62,011 nt of DNA from an uncultured Alphaproteobacteria bacterium (GCA_913047365.1 CAJWUK010000002.1:1-62011), one strand, 5' to 3'. Shown: positions 4,547 through 49,252, counted from the first letter of the stretch. Notes: a model not told the origin generated them from the letters alone. Made by a program: numbers and translations.

Positions 4547-5860
4547 ATGGAATTCACTGATCTGCAAATAGCGTTTTCGGCGATGGGAATACTGCTCGTC
4601 CTTATCGCCCTCCGTCTACCTGTCGGATTTGCTTTGTTTATCGTGGCCGTTGGAGGTGTTGCGGCACTAAAGGGCTGGGACGTAGCGGCAGGCATGATCC
4701 GAAACGAACCATTTGACTTTGCCGCCCATTGGTCGTTTTCGGCAATTCCAATGTTCCTTTTAATGGGCGCCGTTGCCCACAACTCCGGGATAAGTAATTC
4801 GCTGTTTTATGCGGCTAGGTGTTGGTTTGGCGGGCTCCCCGGTGGCTTGGCCGTCGCGACGAACTTCGCTTGTGCTGGTTTCGCCGCAGCCTCCGGCTCG
4901 AGTACGGCGACGGCGGCGGCTTTGGGTAAAATCAGCGTTCCGGAAATGTCTAAGGCTGGATACGATATCGGATTATCCAGCGGAACCGTTGCAAGCGCCG
5001 GTACACTGGGGGCTATGATCCCACCATCGATCGCTTTTGTGCTTTACGGGATTTTTGCCGAGGTCTCTATAAGCAAATTGTTTATTGCCGGTGTTTTGCC
5101 AGGGCTCCTTACAGCGGGCATCTATGCGCTGATGATCATAGCAAGGTGCAAGGTTAATCCGTCCCTCGGCCCGCCGCTTGAAATCAAAATGTCGTTCATG
5201 GAGAAGGTTATAGCTCTTAAGGACGTATGGCCGCTCCTCGTTTTAATAGTTGCGATAATCGGGGGTCTATACGGGGGGTTGGTTACGCCAACAGAAGCCG
5301 GGGCGTTTGGTGCCTTTGTCGCGGTGGTGATTTCTTTTCTTCAGGGGAGAATGAACCTTCGGGTTCTTAAGGATAGTGTTCTAGAGGCGTTGGCGGGTAC
5401 GGCCAAAATTTTCTGGGTGGCAATCGGTGCCGTCATGTTAACCCGTTTTTTGGCGATGGCTGGCGCAGAGGATTTCCTTAAAGACCTTGTCGGAAGTTGG
5501 GCTGCCGAGCCGTTACTACTCGTCCTTGCGGCTTCATTGATTTACATCGTACTCGGAATGTTTCTCGACCCACTTGGCGTGCTTCTTCTTTCGTTGCCGC
5601 TCCTGCTGCCAATGTTTGAGGCGCTAGATCTTAATTTGATATGGTTTGGCGTTCTGGTTGTTAAATACATAGAAATCGGTCTTTTGACGCCGCCCGTTGG
5701 CCTTAATGTCTATGTCATTAAAAGCGTGGTCGGGCCGGAAGTTTCATTAGAAACAATATTTAAGGGTGTGGGTTGGTTCCTGGTCTGCGAGGTATTGGTT
5801 GTCTTGCTATTGGTATTCTTCCCGCAGATATCCCTATTTCTGCCTTCAATGATGCAGTAG
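4547..5860 (+). CDS. dctM: TRAP transporter large permease (DctM family)
   Basis: 437 aa polytopic membrane protein with typical DctM blocks (GIPMFLLMG-like AIPMFLLMGAV, GTLGAMIPPS). Confidence 0.92.
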   Translation: MEFTDLQIAFSAMGILLVLIALRLPVGFALFIVAVGGVAALKGWDVAAGMIRNEPFDFAAHWSFSAIPMFLLMGAVAHNSGISNSLFYAARCWFGGLPGGLAVATNFACAGFAAASGSSTATAAALGKISVPEMSKAGYDIGLSSGTVASAGTLGAMIPPSIAFVLYGIFAEVSISKLFIAGVLPGLLTAGIYALMIIARCKVNPSLGPPLEIKMSFMEKVIALKDVWPLLVLIVAIIGGLYGGLVTPTEAGAFGAFVAVVISFLQGRMNLRVLKDSVLEALAGTAKIFWVAIGAVMLTRFLAMAGAEDFLKDLVGSWAAEPLLLVLAASLIYIVLGMFLDPLGVLLLSLPLLLPMFEALDLNLIWFGVLVVKYIEIGLLTPPVGLNVYVIKSVVGPEVSLETIFKGVGWFLVCEVLVVLLLVFFPQISLFLPSMMQ

Positions 5861-8532: not shown

Positions 8533-9987
8533 ATGGCCAATCTCGCCTCTCTTCTCGACCATCAGGCAATTCGCAAGCCCGAACACCCCGCTATAATCGA
8601 AAACGGGGAAAGCGTGTCCTACCACGACCTGGCCGTGCGCGTCCGACAGTGGGCGGGTGCACTGGAAAATGCCGGCTTAAAGGCGGGGGACGTTATCGCG
8701 GTTGGGCTGACCGACAGCGCAGATCATATCGTTATGAATTGGGCGGTAGCCCGGATGGGCTCCGTTATTCTGCCCGTCGATCACCGCTGGACCGATGCTG
8801 AAAAGGCAAATGTCATCAAGGGTTTCGGTGCAAAGGCTCTGATTTCCGAGAGCGGTGAGGGACCGCCTGAAATGACAGTTTGGCTAAACGATGATTTCCG
8901 TGCCAAAGCTGCCGCAATTGATCCGGACCGCTCTTTTCCGGAAGACGACGACCTTCCCGTAGTCCTGTCACTGTCTTCCGGTACCACCGGAAGACCCAAG
9001 GGCCCGGCGCTTTCCCATCGCCAGATGCGTGCCCGCTGGTTAACGCAGCTTGTTTCGTTGGGGTTTACCGAGCGGGACCGGTATTTGTCCGCGACACCGT
9101 TATATTTCGGAGGCGGACGTTCATTCACGATGAGCGCAAACTGGTGCGGCGCGACCGTTATCATGTTTCCGCCGCCTTACGAGCCGGAGGCACTTATATC
9201 TGCAGCCGGGGAACATAAGGCGACTACCACGCTGTTGGTGCCCACGATATTGCGTCGTCTGCTGGCTCTGAAGGACGAAGACGCGCTGCTTTTCGAGAAT
9301 TTACGGCTAATGCTGTGCACGGGCTCGATTTTGCATCAGGAGGAACGGGAACAGGTTATTCGTTATCTCTGTCCTGATTTCATCAACTACTACGGATCGA
9401 CAGAAGGCGGCGGCGTGTCGATTTTGGCGAGCGATCACGGCCTGGAAGCCGCGGGATCCGTAGGGCAGGTGGTTTTCGGTACGAACGTGGAAATTGTTAA
9501 TTCAGATCATTACCCCGTCGACAACGGGGAGGTGGGGCTAATTCGGTACAAGGGAGACGGTGTGGCCTCCGGGTTTTACAAGGATGCGGAAGCAGACCGC
9601 GAAGCCTACCGCGATGGCTGGTTTTACCCCGGCGATCTGGGCCGTTTCGATGAAAACGGGTTCCTGTTCCTTGCTGGACGTTCGAAAGACGTAATTATAA
9701 GGGGTGGTGCGAACATTTACCCGGCGGAGGTCGAGGCCGTTCTGCTGAGCCATCCCGATGTGGAGGACGCTGCCGTGGTTGGCGTTCCGTCAAAGGAGAT
9801 GGGAGAGGAAATCATCGCATTCGCGACAGGCGCCGCCGATGCCGGGACGCTGGACGCATATGTTCGCGACCGAATTGCCTCCTACAAAGTGCCGAAGGCC
9901 TTCGTGATGTTGGAGGCGTTGCCGAAAAGCGGTCTCGGAAAGGTCCAGAAAGAAGCGCTGAAAAAAAACGCGGAAAATTTCCTATAA
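8533..9987 (+). CDS. class I adenylate-forming acyl-CoA synthetase (AMP-binding)
   Basis: AMP-binding signature LSSGTTGRPKG, YGSTEGG, GD.G, and a C-terminal K in the GKVQK motif. Confidence 0.92.
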   Translation: MANLASLLDHQAIRKPEHPAIIENGESVSYHDLAVRVRQWAGALENAGLKAGDVIAVGLTDSADHIVMNWAVARMGSVILPVDHRWTDAEKANVIKGFGAKALISESGEGPPEMTVWLNDDFRAKAAAIDPDRSFPEDDDLPVVLSLSSGTTGRPKGPALSHRQMRARWLTQLVSLGFTERDRYLSATPLYFGGGRSFTMSANWCGATVIMFPPPYEPEALISAAGEHKATTTLLVPTILRRLLALKDEDALLFENLRLMLCTGSILHQEEREQVIRYLCPDFINYYGSTEGGGVSILASDHGLEAAGSVGQVVFGTNVEIVNSDHYPVDNGEVGLIRYKGDGVASGFYKDAEADREAYRDGWFYPGDLGRFDENGFLFLAGRSKDVIIRGGANIYPAEVEAVLLSHPDVEDAAVVGVPSKEMGEEIIAFATGAADAGTLDAYVRDRIASYKVPKAFVMLEALPKSGLGKVQKEALKKNAENFL

Positions 9988-31068: not shown

Positions 31069-31911
31069 ATGAAGTTCACCGGTACCGATAATTATGTCGC
31101 CACAGACGACCTGATGACCGCCGTCAATGCGGCAATCACTCTTGAAAGGCCGTTACTGGTGAAAGGCGAACCCGGCACCGGGAAAACCCTGCTGGCCATG
31201 GAGGTTGCGGAAGCATTGGGGATGCCACTTTATGAATGGCACATCAAATCCACCACCAAGGCAAACCACGGCCTGTACGAATATGACGCGGTCTCGCGTC
31301 TCAGGGATTCCCAACTTGGCGACGACCGGGTGCAGGACATCAACAACTACATCAAGCGCGGCATGCTGTGGGAGTCGTTTGTCTCAGACAAGCCGTCGGT
31401 TCTGCTGATCGACGAGATCGACAAGGCAGATATCGAATTTCCCAACGACCTTTTACGCGAACTCGACCGCATGGAATTCTATGTCTACGAGACACAGGAA
31501 ACGGTGAGTGCGATCAACCGGCCGGTCGTCATCATCACGTCAAATAATGAGAAGGAATTGCCGGATGCATTCCTGCGCCGCTGTTTCTTCCATTACATTC
31601 GGTTTCCAGATGAGGAAACCATGGAAAAGATCGTTCACGTACATTTCCCGGACATCAAGAAGCGGCTGTTGAAAGAAGCCCTTGAAGTCTTTTTTTCCAT
31701 CCGGGAGGTCAACGGCATCAAGAAGAAACCGACGACGTCCGAGTTGCTGGACTGGATCAAGCTTTTGCTGGCGGAAGACATTGATCCCGAGGTGCTGCGC
31801 GGCGACAGTACCAAGGCCATTCCGCAGTTACATGGTGCGCTGCTAAAAAACGAGCAGGATGTTCACATGTTCGAACGACTGGCCTTCATGTCCCGGCGGC
31901 AGGACGGATAG
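31069..31911 (+). CDS. MoxR-class AAA+ ATPase (CbbQ/NorQ/CoxD-like, 280 aa)
   Basis: Walker A GEPGTGKT, Walker B LLIDEIDKA, sensor/arginine-finger region LPDAFLRRC. ATG at 31069; the track start at 30991 overlaps the divergent gene. Confidence 0.9.
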   Translation: MKFTGTDNYVATDDLMTAVNAAITLERPLLVKGEPGTGKTLLAMEVAEALGMPLYEWHIKSTTKANHGLYEYDAVSRLRDSQLGDDRVQDINNYIKRGMLWESFVSDKPSVLLIDEIDKADIEFPNDLLRELDRMEFYVYETQETVSAINRPVVIITSNNEKELPDAFLRRCFFHYIRFPDEETMEKIVHVHFPDIKKRLLKEALEVFFSIREVNGIKKKPTTSELLDWIKLLLAEDIDPEVLRGDSTKAIPQLHGALLKNEQDVHMFERLAFMSRRQDG

Positions 31912-31926
31912 CGGGGCTGCGGCGCC

Positions 31927-33117
31927 GTGTTCGTCGATTTTTTTTACCAACTGCGCGAAGCGCGAATTCCGGTCACCATCCGGGAATTTCTGACCTTTCT
32001 GGAAGCGCTGGATAAAGACGTTGCCCGGGGCAACATAGACGAGTTCTATTTCCTGTCCCGAGCCTCACTGGTGAAGGACGAACGGTTTTTCGATACGTTC
32101 GACCTGGTTTTCGGGAACTTTTTCCAGGGCGCGATGAACAAGACCGAAGGTCTGCTTGAGGAATATATTCCTGAGGACTGGCTGCAGGGTGTTGCCCGGG
32201 AAATGTTCAGCGAAGAAGAAATCGACGAGATGAGCTTCGAAGAGCTTATGGAGGAGCTTGCCAAGCGGCTTCAGGAGCAGGACGGGCAGCACCATGGTGG
32301 TAATCGCTGGATCGGTACCGGCGGCACATCACCGTTCGGGAACTCAGGGCAGAACCCGAGAGGGTTTCGCATGGGCGGAGAGGGCGGCGGCAAAAGCGCC
32401 ACGAAGATGTGGCAAAAAAGGGATTTTCGCTCGCTACGGGGCGAGACGGAGATCGGCACACGAAACATGAAGATGGCGCTACGGCGTCTGCGCAAATTCG
32501 TGCGTGAAGGTGCAGAAGATGAATTCGACCTAGACGAAACGATCAAATCGACCGCCGACCGCGGCGGGATGCTGGACATCAAGATGCGTGCCGAACGTAA
32601 GAACAAGGTCAAGGTACTGACCATGTTCGATATCGGCGGTTCAATGGACAGCTTTATCCGGATTTCGGAAGAGTTGTTCTCGGCTGTCCGCACCGAGTTC
32701 AAGTACCTGGAATACTACTACTTTCACAATTTTCTGTATGAGCGGGTATGGCGACAGAACCGGCGCGGATACAACGAATGGATACCCACTCACGAGGTCA
32801 TGAACACCTACGGATCTGACTGGAAAGCCATCTTTGTCGGGGATGCCACAATGAGTCCCTTTGAAATCACTGAAGTAGGCGGGTCCATCGAGCACTGGAA
32901 TGAAGAGGCGGGAGAGCTCTGGCTTCGACGCTTTCTGGCGACCTATCCGGATGCTGTCTGGTTGAACCCGGTGCCGCAGGAAAGGTGGATGGCGACCCCG
33001 AGTATTCGGATGACGTATCAATTATTGGAGGGTCGAATGTTTCCACTGACGGTCGATGGACTGGATGCCGCAATGAAACTTTTGCGGCAGGGACGTCAGG
33101 CGGCGAGCCGCCATTAA
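31927..33117 (+). CDS. VWA domain protein, CoxE-like partner of the MoxR ATPase
   Basis: CoxE-type N-terminus (FF.QLR.A.IPV...E...FL.AL). C-terminal VWA with MIDAS-like D.GGSM (FDIGGSMD). 15 nt after the ATPase gene. Confidence 0.85.
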   Translation: MFVDFFYQLREARIPVTIREFLTFLEALDKDVARGNIDEFYFLSRASLVKDERFFDTFDLVFGNFFQGAMNKTEGLLEEYIPEDWLQGVAREMFSEEEIDEMSFEELMEELAKRLQEQDGQHHGGNRWIGTGGTSPFGNSGQNPRGFRMGGEGGGKSATKMWQKRDFRSLRGETEIGTRNMKMALRRLRKFVREGAEDEFDLDETIKSTADRGGMLDIKMRAERKNKVKVLTMFDIGGSMDSFIRISEELFSAVRTEFKYLEYYYFHNFLYERVWRQNRRGYNEWIPTHEVMNTYGSDWKAIFVGDATMSPFEITEVGGSIEHWNEEAGELWLRRFLATYPDAVWLNPVPQERWMATPSIRMTYQLLEGRMFPLTVDGLDAAMKLLRQGRQAASRH

Positions 33118-33159
33118 ACTGGCACCCACTACTTCGGATATATATATTATATTTTCACC

Positions 33160-33522
33160 ATGACCTTCTTGCGCCTCCAGAAACAAAGGATCGGACTGTT
33201 CCTTGCGGTCTTTCTGGCGATGGCTGCAGCATCTCCTGGATTGCTGGCGGCGGCGAAGGGGATACAGGTTCAGGCTCTGATATGCTCGCCGAACGCCACA
33301 AAAAACCCTATCGACGATAAACCGGCATTTTTGCCAGAAGACCATTGCCAGATTTGTCCGATAGGATCGTTGGAAAAACTGGCCGCTTTACGCGTTGGTG
33401 CGGTGAACTACCTCAAGTCACAGCATATGGTGTCTGTAACGGTATTCCGAAGTGAGCGGCTCAGATGGTTTAGGGCAGAGTTGTTCCCTGTCCAGGGCCG
33501 TTCACCGCCTGCCCAAATCTGA
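33160..33522 (+). CDS. DUF2946-like secreted protein with HCxxC motif
   Basis: Signal peptide, 120 aa, EDHCQICP motif. This family is characteristically adjacent to PCu(A)C copper chaperones. Confidence 0.6.
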   Translation: MTFLRLQKQRIGLFLAVFLAMAAASPGLLAAAKGIQVQALICSPNATKNPIDDKPAFLPEDHCQICPIGSLEKLAALRVGAVNYLKSQHMVSVTVFRSERLRWFRAELFPVQGRSPPAQI

Positions 33523-33571
33523 ACTCTATTTCGCCGGAAAGCCGGCATCATTCAGATTTGGAGAGAGAACT

Positions 33572-34102
33572 ATGAAATCACCGATTGCAGCGGCGGCGCT
33601 TTTGGCAGCCATGTTCGGGTTTTCGACCGCTGTCTATGGCCATTCCCACAAAATGAAACACGGGAACCACGGCGCCCATACGATGGGAGGGGTAAAGGTT
33701 ACGTCGGCCTGGGCGCGGGCGACGCCTGGTAAGGCGAAAAACGGCGCAGCCTACGTGACTATCGCAAATGATGGCCAGCACAAGGACAGGCTTGTGGCGG
33801 TAAAAGGATCCGCCGCAAAAAAGATCGAAATTCACACCCACCTGATGGAAAAAGGAATTATGCGGATGCGCCGCGTTGAAGGAGTTGACGTTCCCGCTGG
33901 CGGCACGGTGACGTTTAAGCCGGGCGGTCTTCATTTGATGCTGATGGGGCTGGAAGAACCGCTGAAGAAGGGCGGTTCGCTCTCGCTCACCCTTATTTTC
34001 AAAAAAGCGGGTGAGGTTGCGGCTAACATCCGTATTCTTAGCGTAGGCGCGATGGGTGCCAAGGGCGGCCATGGACATGGTGGGCACTCGTCACATAAAT
34101 GA
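33572..34102 (+). CDS. periplasmic copper chaperone PCu(A)C (DUF461), His-rich termini
   Basis: Signal peptide. H-x-M...M...H-x-M copper motif (IHTHLMEKGIMRM...GGLHLMLMG). His-rich HSHKMKHGNHGAH after the signal peptide and a GGHGHGGHSSHK tail. SD GGAGAGAG. Confidence 0.88.
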   Translation: MKSPIAAAALLAAMFGFSTAVYGHSHKMKHGNHGAHTMGGVKVTSAWARATPGKAKNGAAYVTIANDGQHKDRLVAVKGSAAKKIEIHTHLMEKGIMRMRRVEGVDVPAGGTVTFKPGGLHLMLMGLEEPLKKGGSLSLTLIFKKAGEVAANIRILSVGAMGAKGGHGHGGHSSHK

Positions 34103-34160
34103 GCCACTTGCCTCCTTGAAAGCGGCTACCTTATTTCTCTGGATAAATTAGGAGGCCGAA

Positions 34161-34628
34161 GTGGACCGTCCTAGAATTTCTGGGTTTCTCGTGCCATTAA
34201 TGCTGGCTTGGCCGTCTGGGGTGTCTGCCCATGGACTGGATATCCTGTCCGGCAACGCTTTGCCCGTAAGGGCCGGCGGGGATACCGCCGTCTATCTGAC
34301 CATCGGCAACGAGGCGTTCCATAACGAGCGACTTATTGGCGCGACTAGTGAAATCGCTAACAAAGTGGAACTCCACGCTGACCGGGACGGTCGGATGGTG
34401 CCCGTAAACGGCATCGAAATTCCTTTAGACGACCGCATCGACATGCGCCAGACAGGACATCACATCATGCTGATCGGAACGAAATCCGATCTTACGGTCG
34501 GCAGTGTCCTAAGGCTGCGTCTGCAGTTTGGAAAGAACCGATTTCAGAACGTCATGGTCCGGGTCGGTAAGGGAGGTGCACCCGCTGCAGCAAGCCCCGC
34601 TCCGCAGGGCGGAGGGCACGGGAAATAG
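34161..34628 (+). CDS. second PCu(A)C-like copper chaperone paralogue
   Basis: GTG start with AGGAGG. Same fold blocks (AVYLTI.N......L......IA..VELH......M.......I......GHHIML.G), but no N-terminal His-rich segment. Confidence 0.8.
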   Translation: MDRPRISGFLVPLMLAWPSGVSAHGLDILSGNALPVRAGGDTAVYLTIGNEAFHNERLIGATSEIANKVELHADRDGRMVPVNGIEIPLDDRIDMRQTGHHIMLIGTKSDLTVGSVLRLRLQFGKNRFQNVMVRVGKGGAPAAASPAPQGGGHGK

Positions 34629-40154: not shown

Positions 40155-40250
40155 CTCTTAAATAAGTTTCTCGAAAGTTAGAGCTGTTAAATGGGTGGGA
40201 AGCGAGGAACCTGCTTATCCGCTCTGACCTATAAGTTTGTGAATTCTCGT

Positions 40251-40301
40251 ATTAATCCGCCACTTTCCAGCAATATGAGCGCTGGTAAGTGGCGGATTAA
40301 T
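40251..40301 (-). repeat. perfect 15-bp inverted repeat (long hairpin) abutting the displaced tRNA-Asn 3' fragment
   Basis: ATTAATCCGCCACTT-N21-AAGTGGCGGATTAAT, with a nested CCAGC/GCTGG stem in the loop. It sits 2 nt beyond the 43-bp repeat, where the native downstream hairpin of the tRNA would be. Confidence 0.7.
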
Positions 40302-40303
40302 TT

Positions 40304-40346
40304 GCTCCTCGGGAGGGACTCGAACCCCCGACCCAGCGGTTAACAG
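40304..40346 (-). repeat. 43-bp direct repeat = 3' part of tRNA-Asn (att site, distal copy)
   Basis: GCTCCTCGGGAGGGACTCGAACCCCCGACCCAGCGGTTAACAG is identical to 44701-44743 (anticodon loop through the first C of CCA of the intact tRNA-Asn), in the same orientation. No tRNA 5' half follows. Confidence 0.9.
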
Positions 40347-40466
40347 TTGGAGTACCCGTACCCCTTCGATATATATTTTGTTATTCGTTTTCGCTTAAAT
40401 TATTGAAAACACGGGCTAATAATACGCCTTTATGGTAGGATACTGCCTGTTGAGCAATGTTTGTGC

Positions 40467-40488
40467 TGCTAACTTTATGCTAACTTGG
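40467..40488 (+). repeat. tandem 11-bp-phased TGCTAACTT motifs (candidate arm-type integrase sites, int-proximal arm)
   Basis: TGCTAACTTTA-TGCTAACTTGG. The same motif pair, in the same orientation, occurs at 44632-44652 in the opposite arm. Confidence 0.5.
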
Positions 40489-40531
40489 GTCGCCCGCTAA
40501 AACTGCCTGACCTTCGATCTAGGGGGGGCGC

Positions 40532-41131
40532 ATGGCAAAATTCACAACAAAGCGCAAATCGACCGGGCGACGTTTGATGCGCCGGACGGCAAGCAATGCA
40601 TTCTCTGGGACCGTGTAGTACCTGGGCGCGGCCTTCGCGTTTTTCCGTCCGGGGTAAAATCGGTCGTGCTGTCCTGTCGCGTCAATGGCCGAGCTCATAT
40701 CGGTACGCTCGGAATCTATGGCGTGGAAATGAAGCTGGATCAGGCCCGCATAGAGCCCGGAGAGTGGAGGGCAAAGGCCCGGAAGGGCATTGAACCCTCT
40801 GGAGAAACGAAAGACTAGCAATGCGCGCGGCAAGTCGCTGTGAGATCTCTTGGGTGAATACGTCCAGGATCGGAAGAGGCATGGCAAGAAGACGTGGTCC
40901 AAGGATAAGCGGCGGTTCGAGCTTGACGTTCCTTCAAGGCTGAAAGCGCGCCCTGCCTGCGATGTGACCCGTGCGGATATTCTGGCCCTCCGTAAGGCGG
41001 CTTCCCATGCACCCTACCAGGCGAATCGGACTGTCGAGACGATCCGTCACACCTTCAACCTTGGCGTGGATTGGGGTTCCGGTCTGAGGATAAACGACAA
41101 CCCCGCCCACGGCATAATCGTGTATCCTTAG
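40532..41131 (+). pseudogene. tyrosine integrase (P4-like, DUF4102 N-terminus) remnant: frameshifted, internally stopped, catalytic domain missing
   Basis: Frame a: MAKFTTK. Frame b from ~40552: AQIDRATFDAPDGKQCILWDRVVPGRGLRVFPSGVKSVVLSCRVNGRAHIGTLGIYG..LDQAR...KGIEPSGETKD then TAG. Frame c (40850-41131): KKTWSKDKRR....ITRADILAL....PYQANRTVETIRHTFNLGVDWG...DNPAHGI then stop. No R-H-R-Y catalytic domain follows. Confidence 0.85.
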
Positions 41132-41222
41132 GAAGACGCAAACTTATTGTTTGCGGATAGTAACTGGGGTTAAGGGCGGAAATGAAACGATCTGACGCGT
41201 GACGCGCTTCGAACCTACATTT

Positions 41223-42794
41223 ATGCGTTCGATTCTTTTCGGCTTTTCGGCGGTCAGCTTGGCATTTCTGCCCGTATGGCACAGCTTATTCTCTCGTCGG
41301 GGAACGGTCTTCGACAGTCCCTTTCTTTCTAACCACCTTCAGTTAGATGTGACAGGCCAGCTTGATTACATGGCGGGCCTAACGTTAATGGTCACATTGT
41401 CTATCTTTGTAGGGGGCACCATTGCCTTAGTCGCATCCCGTTCTTCAATCCTAGCACGAACAATTATGCTCGGTGGTGCCCTGGCACTGCTGCTGTTCGG
41501 TTTGAACGCGGCTCGCGCTCACTATCTACCGTGGGCCAGTTTGTCCAACATCCTTGTATTCGCGAGAGAGGAGACCCTTCTATTTTCGGCGATGCTGCTG
41601 GTTGCGTTGGCTCTGTTAGCGGGACTTATCTTTTTTCTCAACGAGCATCTTATTCGAGCGGTCCTCATCGGCTTACCCGTTGGTGCGATTATATTACTAA
41701 ACGTGATTGCCGCGGTTTTGGTTCTCGGCAAGACCAGTTTCGTAGTGGAGAAGGGCGCGCTAGCAACGCGATTTGCCGAAATTCCGCAAAATCGGGTTGT
41801 CTGGATTATTTTCGATGAAGCAGATTACCGGCTTCTTTTTGAAAACCGGCCCGACGGGCTGGTGCTTCCCAATTTTGACAAGCTGCGCCGATCGGGCCTA
41901 GAGGCAAGCCAAGCGGTTCCCCGTGGCAGATCCACCATCGTGACCATTCCGGCTCTGATCCACGGCCGCCCCATTTCAAGCGCATCCTTTCAAGAGCGCG
42001 GGCTTGTGCTCACCTCTGCTGAGACCAATTCAGCCTGGTTCTGGCAAGACAAAGAAAGCATTTTCGAGGAGTTGCGAATGAAAGGGCTGAATGCCGCTGC
42101 GCTCGGTCAGGAATTTATCCCGTATTGCCGCATAATGCATCGGGTGCTCAACCAATGTTGGGAGATGGGCCGGAACTGGGAACCGGGGTCGGATTTTTTC
42201 CACACTCGAATTGATGATTTTTTGTTGCGGCTTGCGGCCTATATTCCAGTATTGAACAGGAAGCTGCGGCCCGAACTGTTTGATTCTGGCATCACGTATG
42301 AGCATTTCCTTTCAGGAACCCTCAGCGCGATATCTGACCGCACGCTAGCATTGACGTATATTCACTGGAACGTACCGCATACGCCCTACATATGGGATCG
42401 ACGGTCTAAGAGTTATATCAACGCTACGGAAAAACCTTCGAGATATTTCGATAATGCGGCCTATGCCGATATGTTACTGGGCCAGGTGGTAGGGCATATC
42501 TCGAAGTCGGGCCTTGCCGACCGCACCGCTCTAATTATCTCTTCTGACCATAGTTGGCGCCGTTCGGCGAAACAGCATGATGGAATCCTGGATTTCAGGG
42601 TGCCGTTCATTGTTAACTTCCCTGGCCAATCGCGGCCTATAGATTTTTCTGAACCCTTCGATACAATCGTGACAAGAAAACTGGTTGCTGAGATTCTCAA
42701 GGGCGACGTAAATACAGCTGAGCAAGCTGCTAGGTTCATTCGCGCAAACCGCGTATTGCCGAAACGTTCTGCACCTCAAATGACCAAAAAATGA
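41223..42794 (+). CDS. polytopic membrane alkaline-phosphatase-superfamily transferase (LtaS/EptA/OpgB-like sulfatase-fold)
   Basis: About 5 N-terminal TM helices followed by a soluble domain with VWIIFDEADYR, a GRSTIVTIPAL (Ser/Thr nucleophile context), HWNVPHTPY and IISSDHSW metal-ligand blocks. No sulfatase C/S-x-P-x-R motif. ATG 41223 (track GTG 41199 is possible). Confidence 0.7.
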   Translation: MRSILFGFSAVSLAFLPVWHSLFSRRGTVFDSPFLSNHLQLDVTGQLDYMAGLTLMVTLSIFVGGTIALVASRSSILARTIMLGGALALLLFGLNAARAHYLPWASLSNILVFAREETLLFSAMLLVALALLAGLIFFLNEHLIRAVLIGLPVGAIILLNVIAAVLVLGKTSFVVEKGALATRFAEIPQNRVVWIIFDEADYRLLFENRPDGLVLPNFDKLRRSGLEASQAVPRGRSTIVTIPALIHGRPISSASFQERGLVLTSAETNSAWFWQDKESIFEELRMKGLNAAALGQEFIPYCRIMHRVLNQCWEMGRNWEPGSDFFHTRIDDFLLRLAAYIPVLNRKLRPELFDSGITYEHFLSGTLSAISDRTLALTYIHWNVPHTPYIWDRRSKSYINATEKPSRYFDNAAYADMLLGQVVGHISKSGLADRTALIISSDHSWRRSAKQHDGILDFRVPFIVNFPGQSRPIDFSEPFDTIVTRKLVAEILKGDVNTAEQAARFIRANRVLPKRSAPQMTKK

Positions 42795-42985
42795 AAAAAT
42801 TTGCAGCTGGCTTTCTGATCATGATAGCGACAAGCAACCCTTCCTACGCCTACGTCGATCCCGGGTCGGGGGCATTTCTTCTGCAGATCCTCGCCGCCAT
42901 CGGCGTCGGGGCACTATTTTACATGCGAAAGGCCCGGGAGTTCGTCAAACAGCTTTTCACCCGAAGAAAGAGGAAAGACCGGTAG
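42791..42985 (+). CDS. small membrane protein (64 aa)
   Basis: ATG overlaps the upstream stop (ATGA). N-terminal hydrophobic segment, YVDPGSGAFLLQ motif, second TM helix, basic tail RRKRKDR. Confidence 0.6.
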   Translation: MKKFAAGFLIMIATSNPSYAYVDPGSGAFLLQILAAIGVGALFYMRKAREFVKQLFTRRKRKDR

Positions 42986-43006
42986 AACGATACGGTTGCA
43001 TTCGCG

Positions 43007-44443
43007 ATGGATGATAGGTTTCCAATGCCGTCCTTCCGCGATCCGGACGGACGGATTGTCATTTTAGACGGCCGCGTGTTGCGGTTCATGCGTCGTGGCG
43101 CGCCGGAGATGCTGCGCGGCTTTTCCGAAACGAAATCGGGACGCCGGCTGATCGACTCCGGAAAGATACAATCCTGGCGAACGGTCAATCCGGAAGACCC
43201 GGTCGTTCAGGAGGTGTCGGCGGCGGCCCCGGGAGACGCATCGGCGAAAGGTTGGACCGACGTCATCGAGCACGAACGGGTGCCCTTTGCCACTTATGCA
43301 CATGAATGGCCTGCCGCGATGTTGGCGGAAGCAGCAAAGCTGACGCTCGAGATTGCCCGCGACCTGCTGGAAGACGGCTACGGACTGAAGGACGCGACAC
43401 CCTATAACGTCCTTTTCAAAGGTGCGCGTCCGGTTCACGTTGACGTCTTGTCGGTCGAGAGGCGGGATCCGAGTGATCCCATCTGGTTGGCCGAAGTGCA
43501 GTTCCTTCAGGCGTTCCTGCTTCCGCTTCTTTCGGCACAAACCTTCGGAGATGCGCCCCATCGTCATTTCCTGATGAGCCGGGGCGGTGTGACGGCGGAA
43601 ACGCTGTATAGAAAAGCCGGGATTTTGCGCCGGTTCAGCCCGTCGTTTCTTGGGTTTGTGTCAATGCCGGTCTTGCTATCCGGGATGGCTGAAAAAAGAG
43701 AGCAGACGCTTTATAAACCGCGCCGCGTCGATCCCGCCCGCGCCGCCTATACCGTCCGTTACCGGATCAAACGGTTAACCCGTGCCATTGACCACATGTT
43801 TCCCGCGCCGAAAAAATCGGCCTGGTCGGATTACGAAGCGACGCGGGGCTACGACAAAGGTGACCTCGCCATCAAGGAAGCGTTCGTGGTCTCGGCCATC
43901 GAACGGTTCTCGCCCACGCGGGTTCTCGACCTCGGCTGCAACAAGGGCCAATACAGCATTATGGCCGCTGAACGGGGTGCAAGCGTAGTAGCGTGCGATT
44001 TTGACCCGTTTGTTGTCGGAAAATTGTGGCAAGTGGCCAACGCGCGCAGTATCGACATCCTGCCCTTGGTCGTGGATCTTGCGCAGCCTGCTCCGGCCCT
44101 GGGTTGGCGTAATGCTGAATTTCCTTCCTTTCTGTCGCGCGCTCGCGGCAATTTCGACTGCGTGCTTGCCCTTGCTATCATTCACCACCTGCTAGTGACC
44201 GAGCGGGTGCCGATGAGCGAGGTGGTTGAGCTGATCGCCGATATGACACTCGATATTGCGGTGATGGAATATGTTTCGCCGGAAGATCCCAATTTCAAAC
44301 GTCTTTGTCGCGGCCGTGACGCGCTTTATGCACACCTGACTGAAGAAGCCTTTGTTTCGGCATGCCAAGCGCGGTTCGAGCTTGTCGATCGGCGCACCCT
44401 TGAAACGGGAAATAGAACGCTTCTCCTGTTTAAGCGCCGCTGA
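43007..44443 (+). CDS. two-domain class I SAM-dependent methyltransferase (478 aa)
   Basis: C-terminal Rossmann motif I VLDLGCNKGQYS with acidic post-I (ACDFD) and ALAIIHHL. A ~270-aa N-terminal domain (FRDPDG...HERVPFATYAHEWP...LKDATPYNVLF..ARPVHVDVLS) recurs in an uncharacterised methyltransferase family as far as I recall. Confidence 0.75.
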   Translation: MDDRFPMPSFRDPDGRIVILDGRVLRFMRRGAPEMLRGFSETKSGRRLIDSGKIQSWRTVNPEDPVVQEVSAAAPGDASAKGWTDVIEHERVPFATYAHEWPAAMLAEAAKLTLEIARDLLEDGYGLKDATPYNVLFKGARPVHVDVLSVERRDPSDPIWLAEVQFLQAFLLPLLSAQTFGDAPHRHFLMSRGGVTAETLYRKAGILRRFSPSFLGFVSMPVLLSGMAEKREQTLYKPRRVDPARAAYTVRYRIKRLTRAIDHMFPAPKKSAWSDYEATRGYDKGDLAIKEAFVVSAIERFSPTRVLDLGCNKGQYSIMAAERGASVVACDFDPFVVGKLWQVANARSIDILPLVVDLAQPAPALGWRNAEFPSFLSRARGNFDCVLALAIIHHLLVTERVPMSEVVELIADMTLDIAVMEYVSPEDPNFKRLCRGRDALYAHLTEEAFVSACQARFELVDRRTLETGNRTLLLFKRR

Positions 44444-44631
44444 GAGCCAACAAAATTGCAGCCGACGTCGCGCTTTGCGCCTTGATCGAATTTTCCGATT
44501 GTCGGCCTTGGGTCAAAAGCGTCCCTAGCCAATCCGCACAAAATTCTTCTGCTGTGAGGGTTGAAACGGAATTGCCGGTGATTCGTACAACTCGGACAAC
44601 ACAGTCATCGAGTACCAAATTTCGTCGTTTT

Positions 44632-44652
44632 TGCTAACCTGTTGCTAACTTG
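44632..44652 (+). repeat. tandem TTGCTAACCTG-TTGCTAACTTG (candidate arm-type sites, tRNA-proximal arm)
   Basis: Two 11-bp units, 52-68 bp from the att core. A third GCTAAC lies in the adjacent hairpin (44680-44685). Confidence 0.5.
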
Positions 44653-44659
44653 AAAAGCG

Positions 44660-44690
44660 AAAGGGTTAACGCCTGAAACGCTAACCCTTT
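44660..44690 (-). terminator. hairpin downstream of the intact tRNA-Asn (island-borne)
   Basis: On the minus strand: AAAGGGTTAGCG-tttcagg-CGTTAACCCTTT followed by CGCTTTTC. 12-bp stem with one mismatch. Confidence 0.5.
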
Positions 44691-44698
44691 GCTAGAAT

Positions 44699-44774
44699 TG
44701 GCTCCTCGGGAGGGACTCGAACCCCCGACCCAGCGGTTAACAGCCGCTTGCTCTACCAACTGAGCTACCGAGGA
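44699..44774 (-). tRNA. tRNA-Asn (anticodon GTT), CCA encoded
   Basis: The reverse complement, TCCTCGGTAGCTCAGTTGGTAGAGCAAGCGGCTGTTAACCGCTGGGTCGGGGGTTCGAGTCCCTCCCGAGGAGCCA, folds as a cloverleaf. Anticodon loop CTGTTAA, T-loop GGTTCGAGTCC. 76 nt. Confidence 0.95.
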
Positions 44775-45015
44775 TCAGTGAGCGCAGGGCATATAACACC
44801 GGATGAAACCGGTTTCCAGTCCCATTGTTAAAAATATCCGCGATAGAATTTGGATTTTCGTAAATATGCCTGGCCGAAGGTTCGCTATACTATCCCCGTA
44901 TGGGCTCCGGCCTGTTCCACGAGGTCGTAAACATCGTTTTTTGAGACCTTATGAACCCCGGTTTTGGCCCGCTACCTGCGGTAGGACTTCCTATAAGTTC
45001 GGAAATGATCGGTCT

Positions 45016-45864: not shown

Positions 45865-46136
45865 TGCCGGCGTTCCTAAAATTCTAGAGCAGATAAGGTA
45901 ATAAATTAATCTTATTCTAAATACATATTAACTCAAAATAAGTATCAGATATCATTAGGGGCGAGCTTAGGGTCGGAAAACATAGAAAGATTATTGTTTT
46001 ACCGCGATTTAGATCCTCTGGCTGTACTGTGGCATTGTTGTCCGGTTTTACAGTTCCAAAGAAATTGCGAATATTTGTATGCAACCGTATGTTTTTTGGA
46101 TGTTTCTGAACTCGTTTGTGGGAGAGCGAAGTGGTT

Positions 46137-47114
46137 ATGGAAAGCTCAGAGGATAGGGTTGAGGCGCTGCGTAAAGCCAACAATCTTGAAGACCTATATG
46201 CCGCTCTTACACCGCTCGACATGACACCCGGCTGGATAGAGAGAAAACAGCCGATCTTGTGGGAGCAGCCAGATACTCCGTTTGAGGTCATGCACTGGCG
46301 TTATGAAGAATGTAAGGCAGCACTTGATGCTGCGGGTCGCCTGATTAATACCGATTTGGCAGAACGCCGGAATTTGATTCTGCGTAATCCTGTTGAGGGA
46401 AACAATATCGCTACCACCAAGACCTTAATAAATGCCTACCAAATGATCCTTCCTGGGGAGGAGGCCAGAACCCACCGGCATGCCCCACATGCATTGCGCG
46501 TGATTATCGAGAGCGAGGACTCGTTCTCCGTCGTAAACGGTGAAAAGCACCCGATGGAGACGGGAGATATTGTTTTGACGCCCGGATGGTGCTGGCACGG
46601 GCACGGGCATGATGGCGACAGATCCGCGTATTGGCTGGATGGGCTGGACGTTCCCCTTACGCATCTTTTGGAACCTATGTTTTTCGAAGAACATCCGGAG
46701 GGTTTTGCGCCGGTGGAACGGGTAACCCCGGATTCACCCTACCGGTTCACCTGGGAGTCAATTCAAAAGCGAACGGAGCAGGCTGATGCTGACCCGGAGG
46801 GGCATTTCGGCCGGCGGGTTCGCCTGGAAGCGGACGAAATGCCGACAATCGGTATCTATGTCGAAAGGCTCGAAGCGGGGCAGACAACAAGAAAGTTCCG
46901 CCATTCCGCCAATGTGGTCTACAGCCCGATGATGGGTAGCGGTACCAGCACTATCGACGACAATGAGATATCCTGGAGCAGGGGAGACACCTTCACAGCC
47001 CCCACCTGGAATTGGATTGAACACCGTGCGCAAGAAGACACGATTATGTTCGCCATGACCGACGAATTCCTGATGCGGTTCGCCAACTACTACCGGTTTG
47101 AGGCGGCCGCCTGA
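46137..47114 (+). CDS. gentisate 1,2-dioxygenase-like bicupin
   Basis: GDO hallmarks THRHAPHALRVIIES, GDIVLTPGWCWHGHGH, YWLDGLDVPL. ATG 46137 (track start 46116 is also possible). Confidence 0.85.
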   Translation: MESSEDRVEALRKANNLEDLYAALTPLDMTPGWIERKQPILWEQPDTPFEVMHWRYEECKAALDAAGRLINTDLAERRNLILRNPVEGNNIATTKTLINAYQMILPGEEARTHRHAPHALRVIIESEDSFSVVNGEKHPMETGDIVLTPGWCWHGHGHDGDRSAYWLDGLDVPLTHLLEPMFFEEHPEGFAPVERVTPDSPYRFTWESIQKRTEQADADPEGHFGRRVRLEADEMPTIGIYVERLEAGQTTRKFRHSANVVYSPMMGSGTSTIDDNEISWSRGDTFTAPTWNWIEHRAQEDTIMFAMTDEFLMRFANYYRFEAAA

Positions 47115-47135
47115 TTTAGCGGACTTCAATGGTCA

Positions 47136-47969
47136 TTATTTCGGGAGGTCGCGGGTTTCTATGTGGATCGACCGCTGCGGGTATGGAATCGTAATTCCCG
47201 CTTCGTCGCAGGCCTCTTTTAGGTTCTTGTTCAGATTGAAGAAAACCGTCCAGTAATCGGCCGTTTTAACCCAGACAAGAACGTAAATATTGACTGAACT
47301 GTCGGCCATTTCACCGACGACGTATTGCGGTTCGGGATCGGAAATCACCAGTTCTTCGTTTGCGACGACCTCTTTCGCGGTGTCGATCGCTAAATCGATA
47401 CTATCGCCATAGTCGATTCCAAGTGTGATTTTCACCCGCCGCGTCGGATTGCGGCTGTAATTTGTCAGCGCGCCACCCCATAACTGGCTGTTCGGGGCTA
47501 CGATGAAGACGCCATCTGGTGTTTTCAATTCGGTCGTGAAAAGCCCCAGGCTCACAACCGTGCCGCCCAACCCACCGCATTCGATAAAATCGTCTATTCC
47601 GAACGGCCGAAAAATCATCAGCATGACGCCCGCGGCAACGTTAGACAAAGTGCCCTGTAGAGCCAGACCAATGGCGAGACCGGCGGCGCCAAGAACGGCC
47701 AGAAAACTGGTCGTCTGCACGCCGAACTGCTGCAAAACCGCAAGTACGGTGAAAATGACGATGGTGTAGCGAACGATGCTCCCAAAAAACTTTTGAAGCG
47801 TCATATCGATGCGCTTCGAGTTGGAAAGCGCCCGTTCGGTTACATTTTGCGCCCATCCAGCCGCAATCCATCCGACGATCAGGATCGCGATCGCACCGAC
47901 CACATCGATACCGAATGTCGTGATGATCGTGATCACCTGATCCATTATTTCACTTGTATTTTTGTCCAT
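47136..47969 (-). CDS. small-conductance mechanosensitive channel (MscS family)
   Basis: 3 TM helices, pore-helix block GAAGLAIGLALQGTLSNVAAGVMLMIFRPF, and the beta domain. Confidence 0.9.
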   Translation of the reverse strand: MDKNTSEIMDQVITIITTFGIDVVGAIAILIVGWIAAGWAQNVTERALSNSKRIDMTLQKFFGSIVRYTIVIFTVLAVLQQFGVQTTSFLAVLGAAGLAIGLALQGTLSNVAAGVMLMIFRPFGIDDFIECGGLGGTVVSLGLFTTELKTPDGVFIVAPNSQLWGGALTNYSRNPTRRVKITLGIDYGDSIDLAIDTAKEVVANEELVISDPEPQYVVGEMADSSVNIYVLVWVKTADYWTVFFNLNKNLKEACDEAGITIPYPQRSIHIETRDLPK

Positions 47970-48055
47970 CGAGGTACTTGTACCCTGCTAAATTTCTAGC
48001 GAACGGTTCGTGCGTAAACCTTATTTAAAATTGATTAATCATAAGGTTGGAGGAA

Positions 48056-49252
48056 TTATTTCACGTGTTTGTAGAAGGAAACGTAAGATAAAAGCGCCGC
48101 TATACTGAGAATTAGCATCAGCAACCCGAATGGGACAGCGGTGCCGTCGTGAAGTATGCCGATGGCAAAGGCGGCGATGGCACCCGCTGTGGTCTGATAA
48201 AAGCCAATTGCGGAAGACGCCGCGCCCGCCGTTCGCGGAAAGGGAGCGACAGCAGCGGCCATTGACTGAGGATAATGGAGACCATGTCCGAACATCCAGA
48301 CAAAGGCGGGCAGGGCGACGGCGGGCCCGGTCTTGATGCCAAGCCAGCCGAATAGAAAAATCGTGCCTGCGGCGAAAATGGCGATGCTGCTTCCGGAAAT
48401 TATCAGTTTATGCGGGCCCAACCGTGTACCAAACCGGCCTGCGAACCAGGCTCCGATCATGAAGCCACCGGATCCGAAAGCGAAATAGATACCGCCCATA
48501 TCCGGGCTGATGCCGTAGCCGTCCACGAGCACCAGCATGCTGCCGGCCAGCCACACGAACATAGCCGCATACATCAGCAGGTTTGAAACGCAGTTCAGCG
48601 CGAAAACCGGGTGCGGCGTAACTTCTAGGTAGGTTTTGAACGTCGAAGATAGACGGAGAGTTGTCGGCGCGTCTTCCGGACGGGATTCCTTTAAAATAAC
48701 AAACACAGCGGCAAGAGTGACAACGGCATAGACGCCACAAAAATAGAATGACGCTTCCCAGCCGTACCAGGCGACTAGGAATCCGCCGATAGCCGGGGCG
48801 GCGATTGCCATGATGCCAAAGGCCGACATCACATAACTCATCACGCGGCGAGAGCCTTCCACCCCATAGAGATCACGGATCACGGCCCGCGCCAGGGCGG
48901 GGGCGGCGGATATAGATGCACCTTGCAGCAAGCGGCCAAGGAGTAGGGTTTCGAATGTCGGGGCAAATGCGCAGAAAATCGTGGCGACCGCATAAAGAGC
49001 CATTGAGACCAGCAAAACGGGCCGTCGCCCAAACCTGTCGCCAATCGGCCCGTAGACGAGTTGCATGAAACCGAATGCGAAGACGTAGACGCTGAATACA
49101 AGATTGGCTTCGCTGGTCGTGACACCGAAAAAATCTCTCAACGCAGGAACACCGGGGGCAACGGAGTCGGTGCTGAAGGGGTTCGCGGCGACCAGAAGCG
49201 TGAGGACAGCCCCGACGGCAATTGCGCCGGGAAGGGAAGTATCTTGTTTCAT
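48056..49252 (-). CDS. MFS transporter (Bcr/CflA drug-resistance subfamily-like)
   Basis: 12 TM helices. MFS motif A GPIGDRFGRRPVLL. 398 aa. Confidence 0.88.
   Translation of the reverse strand: MKQDTSLPGAIAVGAVLTLLVAANPFSTDSVAPGVPALRDFFGVTTSEANLVFSVYVFAFGFMQLVYGPIGDRFGRRPVLLVSMALYAVATIFCAFAPTFETLLLGRLLQGASISAAPALARAVIRDLYGVEGSRRVMSYVMSAFGIMAIAAPAIGGFLVAWYGWEASFYFCGVYAVVTLAAVFVILKESRPEDAPTTLRLSSTFKTYLEVTPHPVFALNCVSNLLMYAAMFVWLAGSMLVLVDGYGISPDMGGIYFAFGSGGFMIGAWFAGRFGTRLGPHKLIISGSSIAIFAAGTIFLFGWLGIKTGPAVALPAFVWMFGHGLHYPQSMAAAVAPFPRTAGAASSAIGFYQTTAGAIAAFAIGILHDGTAVPFGLLMLILSIAALLSYVSFYKHVK

Follow-up and report, generated by a model that had tools for sequence, protein, structure and literature searches.

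The contig analysed here (62,011 nt; GCA_913047365.1 CAJWUK010000002.1:1-62011, hereafter the window) comes from an uncultured Alphaproteobacteria bacterium, and positions 40304-44774 of it contain a small islet flanked by a TAXI gene and a TauD gene. At one end of the islet lies an intact tRNA-Asn(GTT) gene and at the other a displaced copy of that gene's 3' portion; between them are a truncated tyrosine-integrase gene, three intact co-oriented open reading frames (ORFs) that fill the space from the integrase remnant to the P arm, and an attachment-type arm at either end (Table 1). The sections below describe these features, their counterparts in other metagenomic contigs, and the grounds for reading the islet as what is left of an integrative element.

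Positions 40304-40346 match positions 44701-44743 exactly (43/43 nt), and when one mismatch is allowed the repeat lengthens to 48 nt (40299-40346 versus 44696-44743). A 31-nt part of the repeat, searched with up to three mismatches, was found at these two sites only within the window, with none expected from shuffled sequences. The tRNA-Asn gene was recovered as intact by both ARAGORN and Rfam (68.5 bits to the Rfam tRNA model). In the sense of the tRNA, the repeat opens with C32 at the start of the anticodon loop and closes with C74, and the 48-nt block ends 4 nt past the CCA. The two copies are co-oriented, and the interval lies 3' of the intact gene. The intact tRNA ends in ...GAGCCAATT and the distal copy in ...GAGCAAATT, such that the CCA there now reads CAA. 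No tRNA 5' half was found beside 40346, where an in-register comparison gave 3 matches in 31 bases and the best local alignment scored below the shuffle mean.

The integrase remnant begins with an ATG at 40532, 185 nt from the distal repeat. In Pfam it matched Arm-DNA-bind_3 (PF13356; E = 2.6e-7; 31.1 bits, cut-off 27) and then Phage_int_M, the latter under the cut-off of 27 (19.6 bits, E = 1e-3). Arm-DNA-bind_3, formerly DUF4102, is the domain of P4 and CPS-53 IntS type integrases. A word-indexed protein search with the reconstructed 195-residue remnant returned no matches; an exhaustive profile search using the 94-residue arm domain resulted in the identification of an intact integrase of 443 amino acids, P0121. 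The remnant corresponds to P0121 residues 6-196 (75% identical over 193 residues), with the arm domain 62-66% identical to residues 5-93 and the core-binding (SAM-like) stretch 77% identical to residues 84-196, and it is 79% identical to a further intact integrase, P0271. Plasmid-borne site-specific integrases of 390-400 amino acids also align, through their N-terminal halves, with 99% of the reconstructed remnant at ~31% identity. Similarity to P0121 ends at a point equal to residue 196 of ~445, and the catalytic domain (PF00589, with the active-site tyrosine), which occupies residues 205-417 of P0121, left no trace in the whole 62-kb window; nor was a second integrase found there. One weak tblastn match resembling the arm domain (4960-5082) falls within a DctM permease ORF and was discarded as chance. 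The short junction that follows the remnant (Table 1) is presumed to be a deletion or replacement breakpoint.

Three lesions interrupt the remnant: a 2-nt insertion after codon 5 (~40547, by comparison with the contigs L047 and L050 described below), a frameshift at ~40794-40800, and an in-frame TGA at 40841-40843 where P0121 has a glycine. Strain L001 lacks the 40794 frameshift and encodes residues 6-196 in one frame, which indicates that decay of the remnant is still under way within the species.

Contigs carrying relatives of the integrase were fetched after a search with P0121. Four of them (L047, L048, L049 and L050) carry a tRNA-Asn 3' fragment ending at the identical ...GGTTAACAG boundary, followed by the P' arm and, 150-280 nt after the fragment, by the integrase gene; the L050 contig begins inside the fragment. 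L047, L048 and L049 represent three different chromosomal contexts, each with a host terminator hairpin plus AATT ahead of the fragment. The integrases encoded are P0121 (L047), P0271 (L050) and P0272 (L048; 47% identical to the remnant), while in L049 the gene is split into two ORFs that are 82-85% identical to P0121. At the DNA level, L050 aligns with window positions 40304-41107 at 75% identity over 813 nt. More distant relatives (L039-L044) have integrases that are 41-49% identical, and two of these, L039 and L043, are arranged in this way at a tRNA-Ala(GGC) fragment. The catalytic domain is kept in P0121, L039, L040 and L043, and in L047 an HTH_17 gene comes directly after the intact integrase gene.

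L043 appears to hold a complete element of 8.7 kb, with an intact integrase gene and weakly matching HTH_17, HTH_91 and DUF4238 genes; its end shows the order of window positions 44632-44774, namely a tandem repeat within the P arm, a hairpin and the tRNA. No conjugation genes were seen in either the window or L043. The left end of this 8.9-kb contig (1-124) repeats the P arm and tRNA-Ala core of the element (8722-8859; ~97% over ~108 nt) and sits just before the P' arm and integrase gene, forming an attP-like junction beside the integrated copy; this reflects either two related elements arrayed in tandem or integrated and circular forms mixed in the assembly.

Each arm of the islet contains a tandem repeat of the form TGCTAAC-N4-TGCTAACTTG, a pattern that occurs in the window at these two places only (0.05 expected). 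A tandem 9- to 10-mer with the exact 11-bp spacing stands 25-75 nt before the integrase start in 6/6 distant relatives as well as in L047, L048 and L049, and the closest intact integrase gene, that of L050, is preceded by two copies of the identical 9-mer, TGCTAACTT. The repeat sequence differs with the integrase: TGCTAACTT is shared by the window and L050 (integrase 79% identical), TGCGGACTT is found in L047 and L049 (75%), TGGTGACTT in L048 (47%), and TGGTCACTT or TGGTAGCTT in the distant clade. The repeat thus tracks integrase relatedness, as arm-type sites bound by the N-terminal domain would be expected to do, and the repeat in the P' arm is presumably the binding site of the integrase's arm-binding domain. 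In L043, too, one and the same tandem motif stands in each arm (240-263 and 8722-8745), and the P arm there shares with that of the islet the order tandem repeat, TTGAAA, hairpin, AATT, tRNA 3' end. A combined pattern of tRNA core and arm repeat had no match in viral contigs. A box, TGGTAGGAT, is kept in the otherwise diverged P' arm of the window (40434-40442) and L050 (~133-141), ~25-30 nt before the tandem repeat, and may be an accessory-protein site.

Same-species contigs were collected by exact-protein look-ups with the flanking TAXI and TauD genes, and metagenome-assembled genomes (MAGs) by one scan of a genome collection with the TAXI protein. The contigs derive from marine metagenomes (Tara Oceans and others) and are 98.7-99.97% identical to the window, and the scan returned uncultured Rhodospirillaceae / Pseudomonadota MAGs. 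One of these, L010 (JAYZFO010000024.1), has a TAXI protein 88% identical to that of the window and carries an empty site, in the order TAXI gene, a hairpin like that at 40251-40301, an intact tRNA-Asn (L010 4686-4761), a region like 44775-44850, and the TauD gene. The L010 tRNA-Asn has CCA and then AATT at its 3' end; the distal copy in the window, together with its terminator-like hairpin, is therefore the original chromosomal 3' end of the gene, and its C>A change postdates its displacement.

Both ends of the islet are predicted to fold strongly. The region 40240-40346, with the chromosomal hairpin, has a z score of -5.2, and 44640-44774 (z = -4.7) folds into the tRNA cloverleaf and a strong stem-loop of ~14 bp, followed by a U-rich stretch. 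A hairpin equivalent to the latter is found at the same place in L043, and this element-borne stem-loop may serve as a replacement terminator for the tRNA-Asn. A simple scan for promoters and terminators gave no signal over background.

These results bear out most of a sequence-only reading of the stretch made beforehand. That reading had described the co-oriented 43-bp tRNA-derived repeat, the lack of a tRNA 5' half after the distal copy, an integrase remnant 185 bp from it without a catalytic domain, and motifs repeated in both arms; all were recovered, the last as a feature conserved family-wide. Its proposal of site-specific integration at the anticodon-loop sublocation is in keeping with the intact integrase relatives found beside tRNA-Asn fragments with the same boundary, and the empty site that it predicted, in which the 40301-40251 hairpin region comes straight after tRNA-Asn, is what L010 displays.

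Table 1. Features of the islet and its borders (window coordinates).
Feature	Position	Strand	Remarks
Ancestral terminator-like hairpin, chromosomal rather than element-borne	40251..40301	-	21-nt inverted repeat, 95% complementary; at same place after L010 tRNA-Asn
Displaced tRNA-Asn 3' fragment (attR core)	40299..40346	-	Anticodon-loop C32 to 3' end plus AATT; CCA mutated to CAA
P' arm, also integrase upstream region	40347..40531	+	DNA homology to L050 region between tRNA fragment and integrase gene; collinear with L047, L048
Tandem arm-type repeat TGCTAACTT-TA-TGCTAACTT, 11-bp spacing	40467..40487	+	In P' arm
Tyrosine-integrase pseudogene	40532..41131	+	Arm-binding and core-binding domains only
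Junction, integrase remnant to cassette	41132..41198	+	Last similarity to P0121 at 41128; cargo ORF from 41199
Cargo gene 1, 531-aa membrane protein	41199..42794	+	N-terminal hydrophobic region; Pfam Sulfatase, E = 4e-11
Cargo gene 2, 64-aa small membrane protein	42791..42985	+	AY(V/I)DPGSG motif; conserved in L027, L028 and L030 cassettes
Cargo gene 3, 478 aa	43007..44443	+	~280-aa uncharacterised N-terminal domain; C-terminal class I S-adenosylmethionine (SAM)-dependent methyltransferase domain
P arm, between cargo and regenerated tRNA	44444..44695	+	Non-coding; collinear with L043 P arm
Second tandem arm-type repeat TGCTAAC-CTGT-TGCTAACTTG	44632..44652	+	In P arm; same orientation as P' arm copy
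Element-borne hairpin, now after regenerated tRNA-Asn	44660..44690	-	Fold of 44640-44774
Regenerated intact tRNA-Asn(GTT)	44699..44774	-	attL core 44696-44743; ARAGORN, Rfam

The state of the locus within the species was assessed from the same-species contigs that cross one or both islet junctions. All eight (L001, L002/L035, L003, L004, L005, L006, L036 and L037, from several samples) are occupied, and no empty-site contig was found among the exact-protein look-ups. The tRNA-Asn gene showed zero single-nucleotide polymorphisms (SNPs) across the strains compared; the distal tRNA fragment carries an extra C>T at 40328 in strains L001 and L004. In L001 the integrase remnant has 10.5 SNPs per kb and the two large cargo genes have 1.3-2.1 (1.3 per kb in cargo gene 1); in L005 and L006 the density reached up to 59 per kb in the P' arm versus 2-3 per kb in the TAXI gene. 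This pattern fits relaxed constraint on the recombination module together with purifying selection on the cargo. The P' arms of L005 and L006 differ from the window at ~6% of positions (0.2-0.3% for the TAXI gene), and both contigs end inside or just past the arm; the divergence could stem from neutral decay or from recombination with another variant of the element.

We interpret 40347-44698 as the remnant of a small integrative element (now an islet of 4.35 kb) that was inserted in tRNA-Asn and lost its integrase, and give this reading a probability of roughly 0.9. A tyrosine integrase with a P4-type N-terminal arm-binding domain would have recombined an attP containing the 3' part of tRNA-Asn with the chromosomal gene, the crossover taking place at, or 3' of, the anticodon loop; the sequence places it within the identity block. 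Integration would have rebuilt the tRNA from the chromosomal 5' half, the element's 3' part and the element's terminator hairpin, with the original 3' part and hairpin displaced by 4.4 kb, so that the portion of the present gene from the anticodon loop onward probably came from the element. The integrase gene would later have lost residue 197 onward, probably along with an adjacent excisionase-like gene and other genes of the element, and the frameshifts and stop codon would have gathered in the remnant afterwards; this deletion history is our reconstruction. Left over would be attL, attR, the arm-type repeats and the three-gene cassette, kept intact. An islet of this kind is likely to be unable to excise alone and to be fixed in the sampled population.

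Several points weigh against this interpretation. The empty site is informative in one relative only, L010, and precise excision in that lineage could explain it equally well. Islet GC content (54.0%) equals the window mean, the GC and third-codon-position GC (GC3) of the cargo genes lie within the distribution for genes of the window, and the tetranucleotide distance of the islet ranks 38/116; there is thus no compositional island signature (GC, GC3 or tetranucleotides) relative to the window, meaning that the donor was similar or that the insertion is old. Homologues of the three-gene cassette sit in ordinary chromosomal settings without an integrase in every context inspected (L027, L028/L029 and L030-L032), and hence the cassette is maybe not the original cargo. 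Lastly, recombination, arm binding and immobility are each predictions from sequence. Two statements of the sequence-only reading stand in part. The three cargo genes are indeed intact ORFs, and their difference in composition holds with respect to the immediate flanks (45-49% GC) but not to the window. That the islet should be fixed in place agrees with the uniformly occupied contigs; with attL, attR and both arm repeats preserved in sequence, however, a related integrase supplied in trans might still excise it.

The integrase-free cassettes also bear on how the islet was assembled. The cassette may have arrived later by a separate recombination that substituted it for the integrase gene's 3' half and the remainder of the element, a course we regard as possible although rather doubtful. 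The chromosomal homologues just mentioned would suit such an arrival, as would the presence of HTH_17 or other genes, not the cassette, after the integrase gene in the intact relatives, and a breakpoint that lies no more than 70 nt upstream of the cassette start. The cassette nevertheless fits exactly between the remnant and the P arm in the orientation of the integrase gene, no second repeat pair, transposase or junction scar was found, and the layout is explained equally well by one deletion inside a larger element. A different origin for the repeat itself, as the remnant of a tandem tRNA-Asn duplication with ordinary chromosomal genes in between, merits next to no credence and was rejected. 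Tandem tRNA duplications do occur and give same-orientation repeats; here, however, the 5' half is missing beside 40346, the interval holds an integrase remnant with family-typical arm repeats, L010 has a single tRNA-Asn flanked directly by both outer neighbours, and the fragments in the four related-integrase contigs stop at the same boundary.

The degraded-element interpretation leaves the present mobility of the islet to be weighed. The islet could still be alive as a hitchhiker resembling a cis-mobilizable element (CIME): a related element that provided a P0271-type integrase in trans, or that inserted in tandem, might allow its excision or movement. Its core repeats are identical and both arm repeats intact, matching the 9-mer of the closest intact integrase gene; the attP-like junction of L043 (P arm, core, P' arm) beside an integrated element shows that the wider family undergoes tandem accretion or has circular forms; and L048, a close relative of the host, encodes an intact clade integrase beside a tRNA-Asn fragment. 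We nonetheless judge this scenario improbable, given that every same-species junction contig is occupied with no empty-site contig among the look-ups, that the P' arm is gaining substitutions and the distal CCA has mutated, and that the 62-kb window holds no second integrase. Were it true, it would mean that an uncharacterised and very widespread three-gene cassette is being spread among marine alphaproteobacteria.

Searches with the cargo proteins yielded domain-level assignments. Cargo gene 1 encodes a sulfatase / alkaline-phosphatase-superfamily domain and is 38% identical to the first gene of the L028 cassette. Cargo gene 2 had no family match in Pfam, NCBIfam, PHROGs or PADLOC. For cargo gene 3, Pfam and NCBIfam matches were to methyltransferase domains only; its homologues number more than 2,000, with Acidobacteriota contributing many, and the best non-self sequences are 53-55% identical. 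Its AlphaFold model (mean confidence score, pLDDT, of 87.8) was matched by Foldseek to the generic class I methyltransferase fold only (ChlM, WbdD, NodS), with no structural match for the ~280-residue N-terminal domain. PDB sequence searches of the cargo gave weak matches only, to sulfatases, LtaS and WbdD, and no specific function emerged from NCBIfam, PHROGs, PADLOC, PDB or fold searches. From the LtaS/EptA-like layout of cargo protein 1, the cassette possibly modifies the cell envelope. A blastn search of the whole islet against plasmids returned no match. The cassette, at 41199-44443 in the window, lies at 2-2636 in L027, 6177-9422 in L028 and 7816-11038 in L030, the gene order differing in L030. 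A TauD gene beside the cassette in both L028 and the window was considered as conserved synteny and rejected; the TauD proteins are 33% identical and the adjacency was taken as coincidence.

tRNA attachment sites are said to fall into sublocation classes, a scheme credited to Williams in 2002. The identity block shared by attL and attR starts in the anticodon loop and reaches the 3' end of the tRNA, which fits the anticodon-loop ('A') sublocation. The islet resembles the tDNA islands catalogued by Islander in that a regenerated tRNA and a co-oriented displaced 3' fragment mark its ends, the attachment site is anticodon-loop-centred, a tyrosine-integrase gene lies inside and a relative carries the empty site. 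The anticodon-loop-centred class accounted for 2083/3919 islands in that collection (Hudson, Lau & Williams 2015, PMC4383910). Unlike those islands, the islet is very small and its integrase is a truncated pseudogene without a catalytic domain, so that the islet would be removed by Islander's integrase filter and does not count as 'putatively active'.

Among Arm-DNA-bind_3 integrases, the intact relatives (P0121, P0271 and that of L039) have the usual order of arm-binding, core-binding and catalytic domains, and the tandem repeats of the two att arms fit the expectation for arm-type sites; the islet differs in keeping the first two domains only. Its integrase gene adjoins the displaced fragment and reads inward. 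CIMEs are defined in ICEberg 2.0 relative to the integrative and conjugative elements (ICEs) that mobilise them (PMC6323972). Like them, the islet is without integration and transfer genes, its other ORFs being cargo, and retains attL and attR in sequence (core and arm repeats intact, with the P' arm diverging between strains); unlike them, it has no conjugation genes seen in the window or in related elements. The enterobacterial asn-tDNA islands (the Yersinia high-pathogenicity island (HPI) / ICEKp family and GI-E492) share with the islet the tRNA-Asn(GUU) target, a position downstream of it and tRNA-derived direct repeats. HPI, ICEKp and GI-E492 integrases use an attB that begins in the T-loop, with short repeats (bioRxiv 10.1101/2020.11.02.365908), whereas the identity block of the islet spans 43-48 nt from the anticodon loop, and host lineage and cargo are unrelated.

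The islet is a degraded example of a well-known kind of element and brings no new principle. Its value lies in offering a clean, fully bracketed case of a tRNA-targeting integrative element that appears to be decaying into a fixed islet, and in documenting an arm-binding tyrosine-integrase clade (P0121/P0271/P0272) that is experimentally unstudied and was found only in contigs from uncultured marine and other environmental metagenomes, here in Rhodospirillaceae-like bacteria. For members of this clade the target is the tRNA-Asn anticodon loop, and for relatives further away it is tRNA-Ala; the tandem 9-mers that co-vary with integrase sequence provide ready pairs for tests of arm-site specificity. 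The role of the three-gene cassette is the main biological question that the islet raises.

Two further observations concern the surroundings of the locus. L048 belongs to a close relative of the host, with L048 1-3624 corresponding to window 31429-34565 at 87-92% protein identity in an AAA / VWA_CoxE block. A few kb downstream of this block, at L048 9080-10713, lies the intact clade integrase behind a tRNA-Asn fragment, the intervening genes being different, and insertions seem to recur at the tRNA-Asn region in the lineage of L048 and the host. On the other side of the tRNA-Asn, a cupin-domain gene (46116-47114) and an MscS-type channel gene (47136-47969) are missing from L010, where the homologue of window 48084 onward starts ~200 bp or less after the TauD gene; window 45865-48083 is a second insertion or deletion difference relative to L010, adjoining the tRNA-Asn locus.

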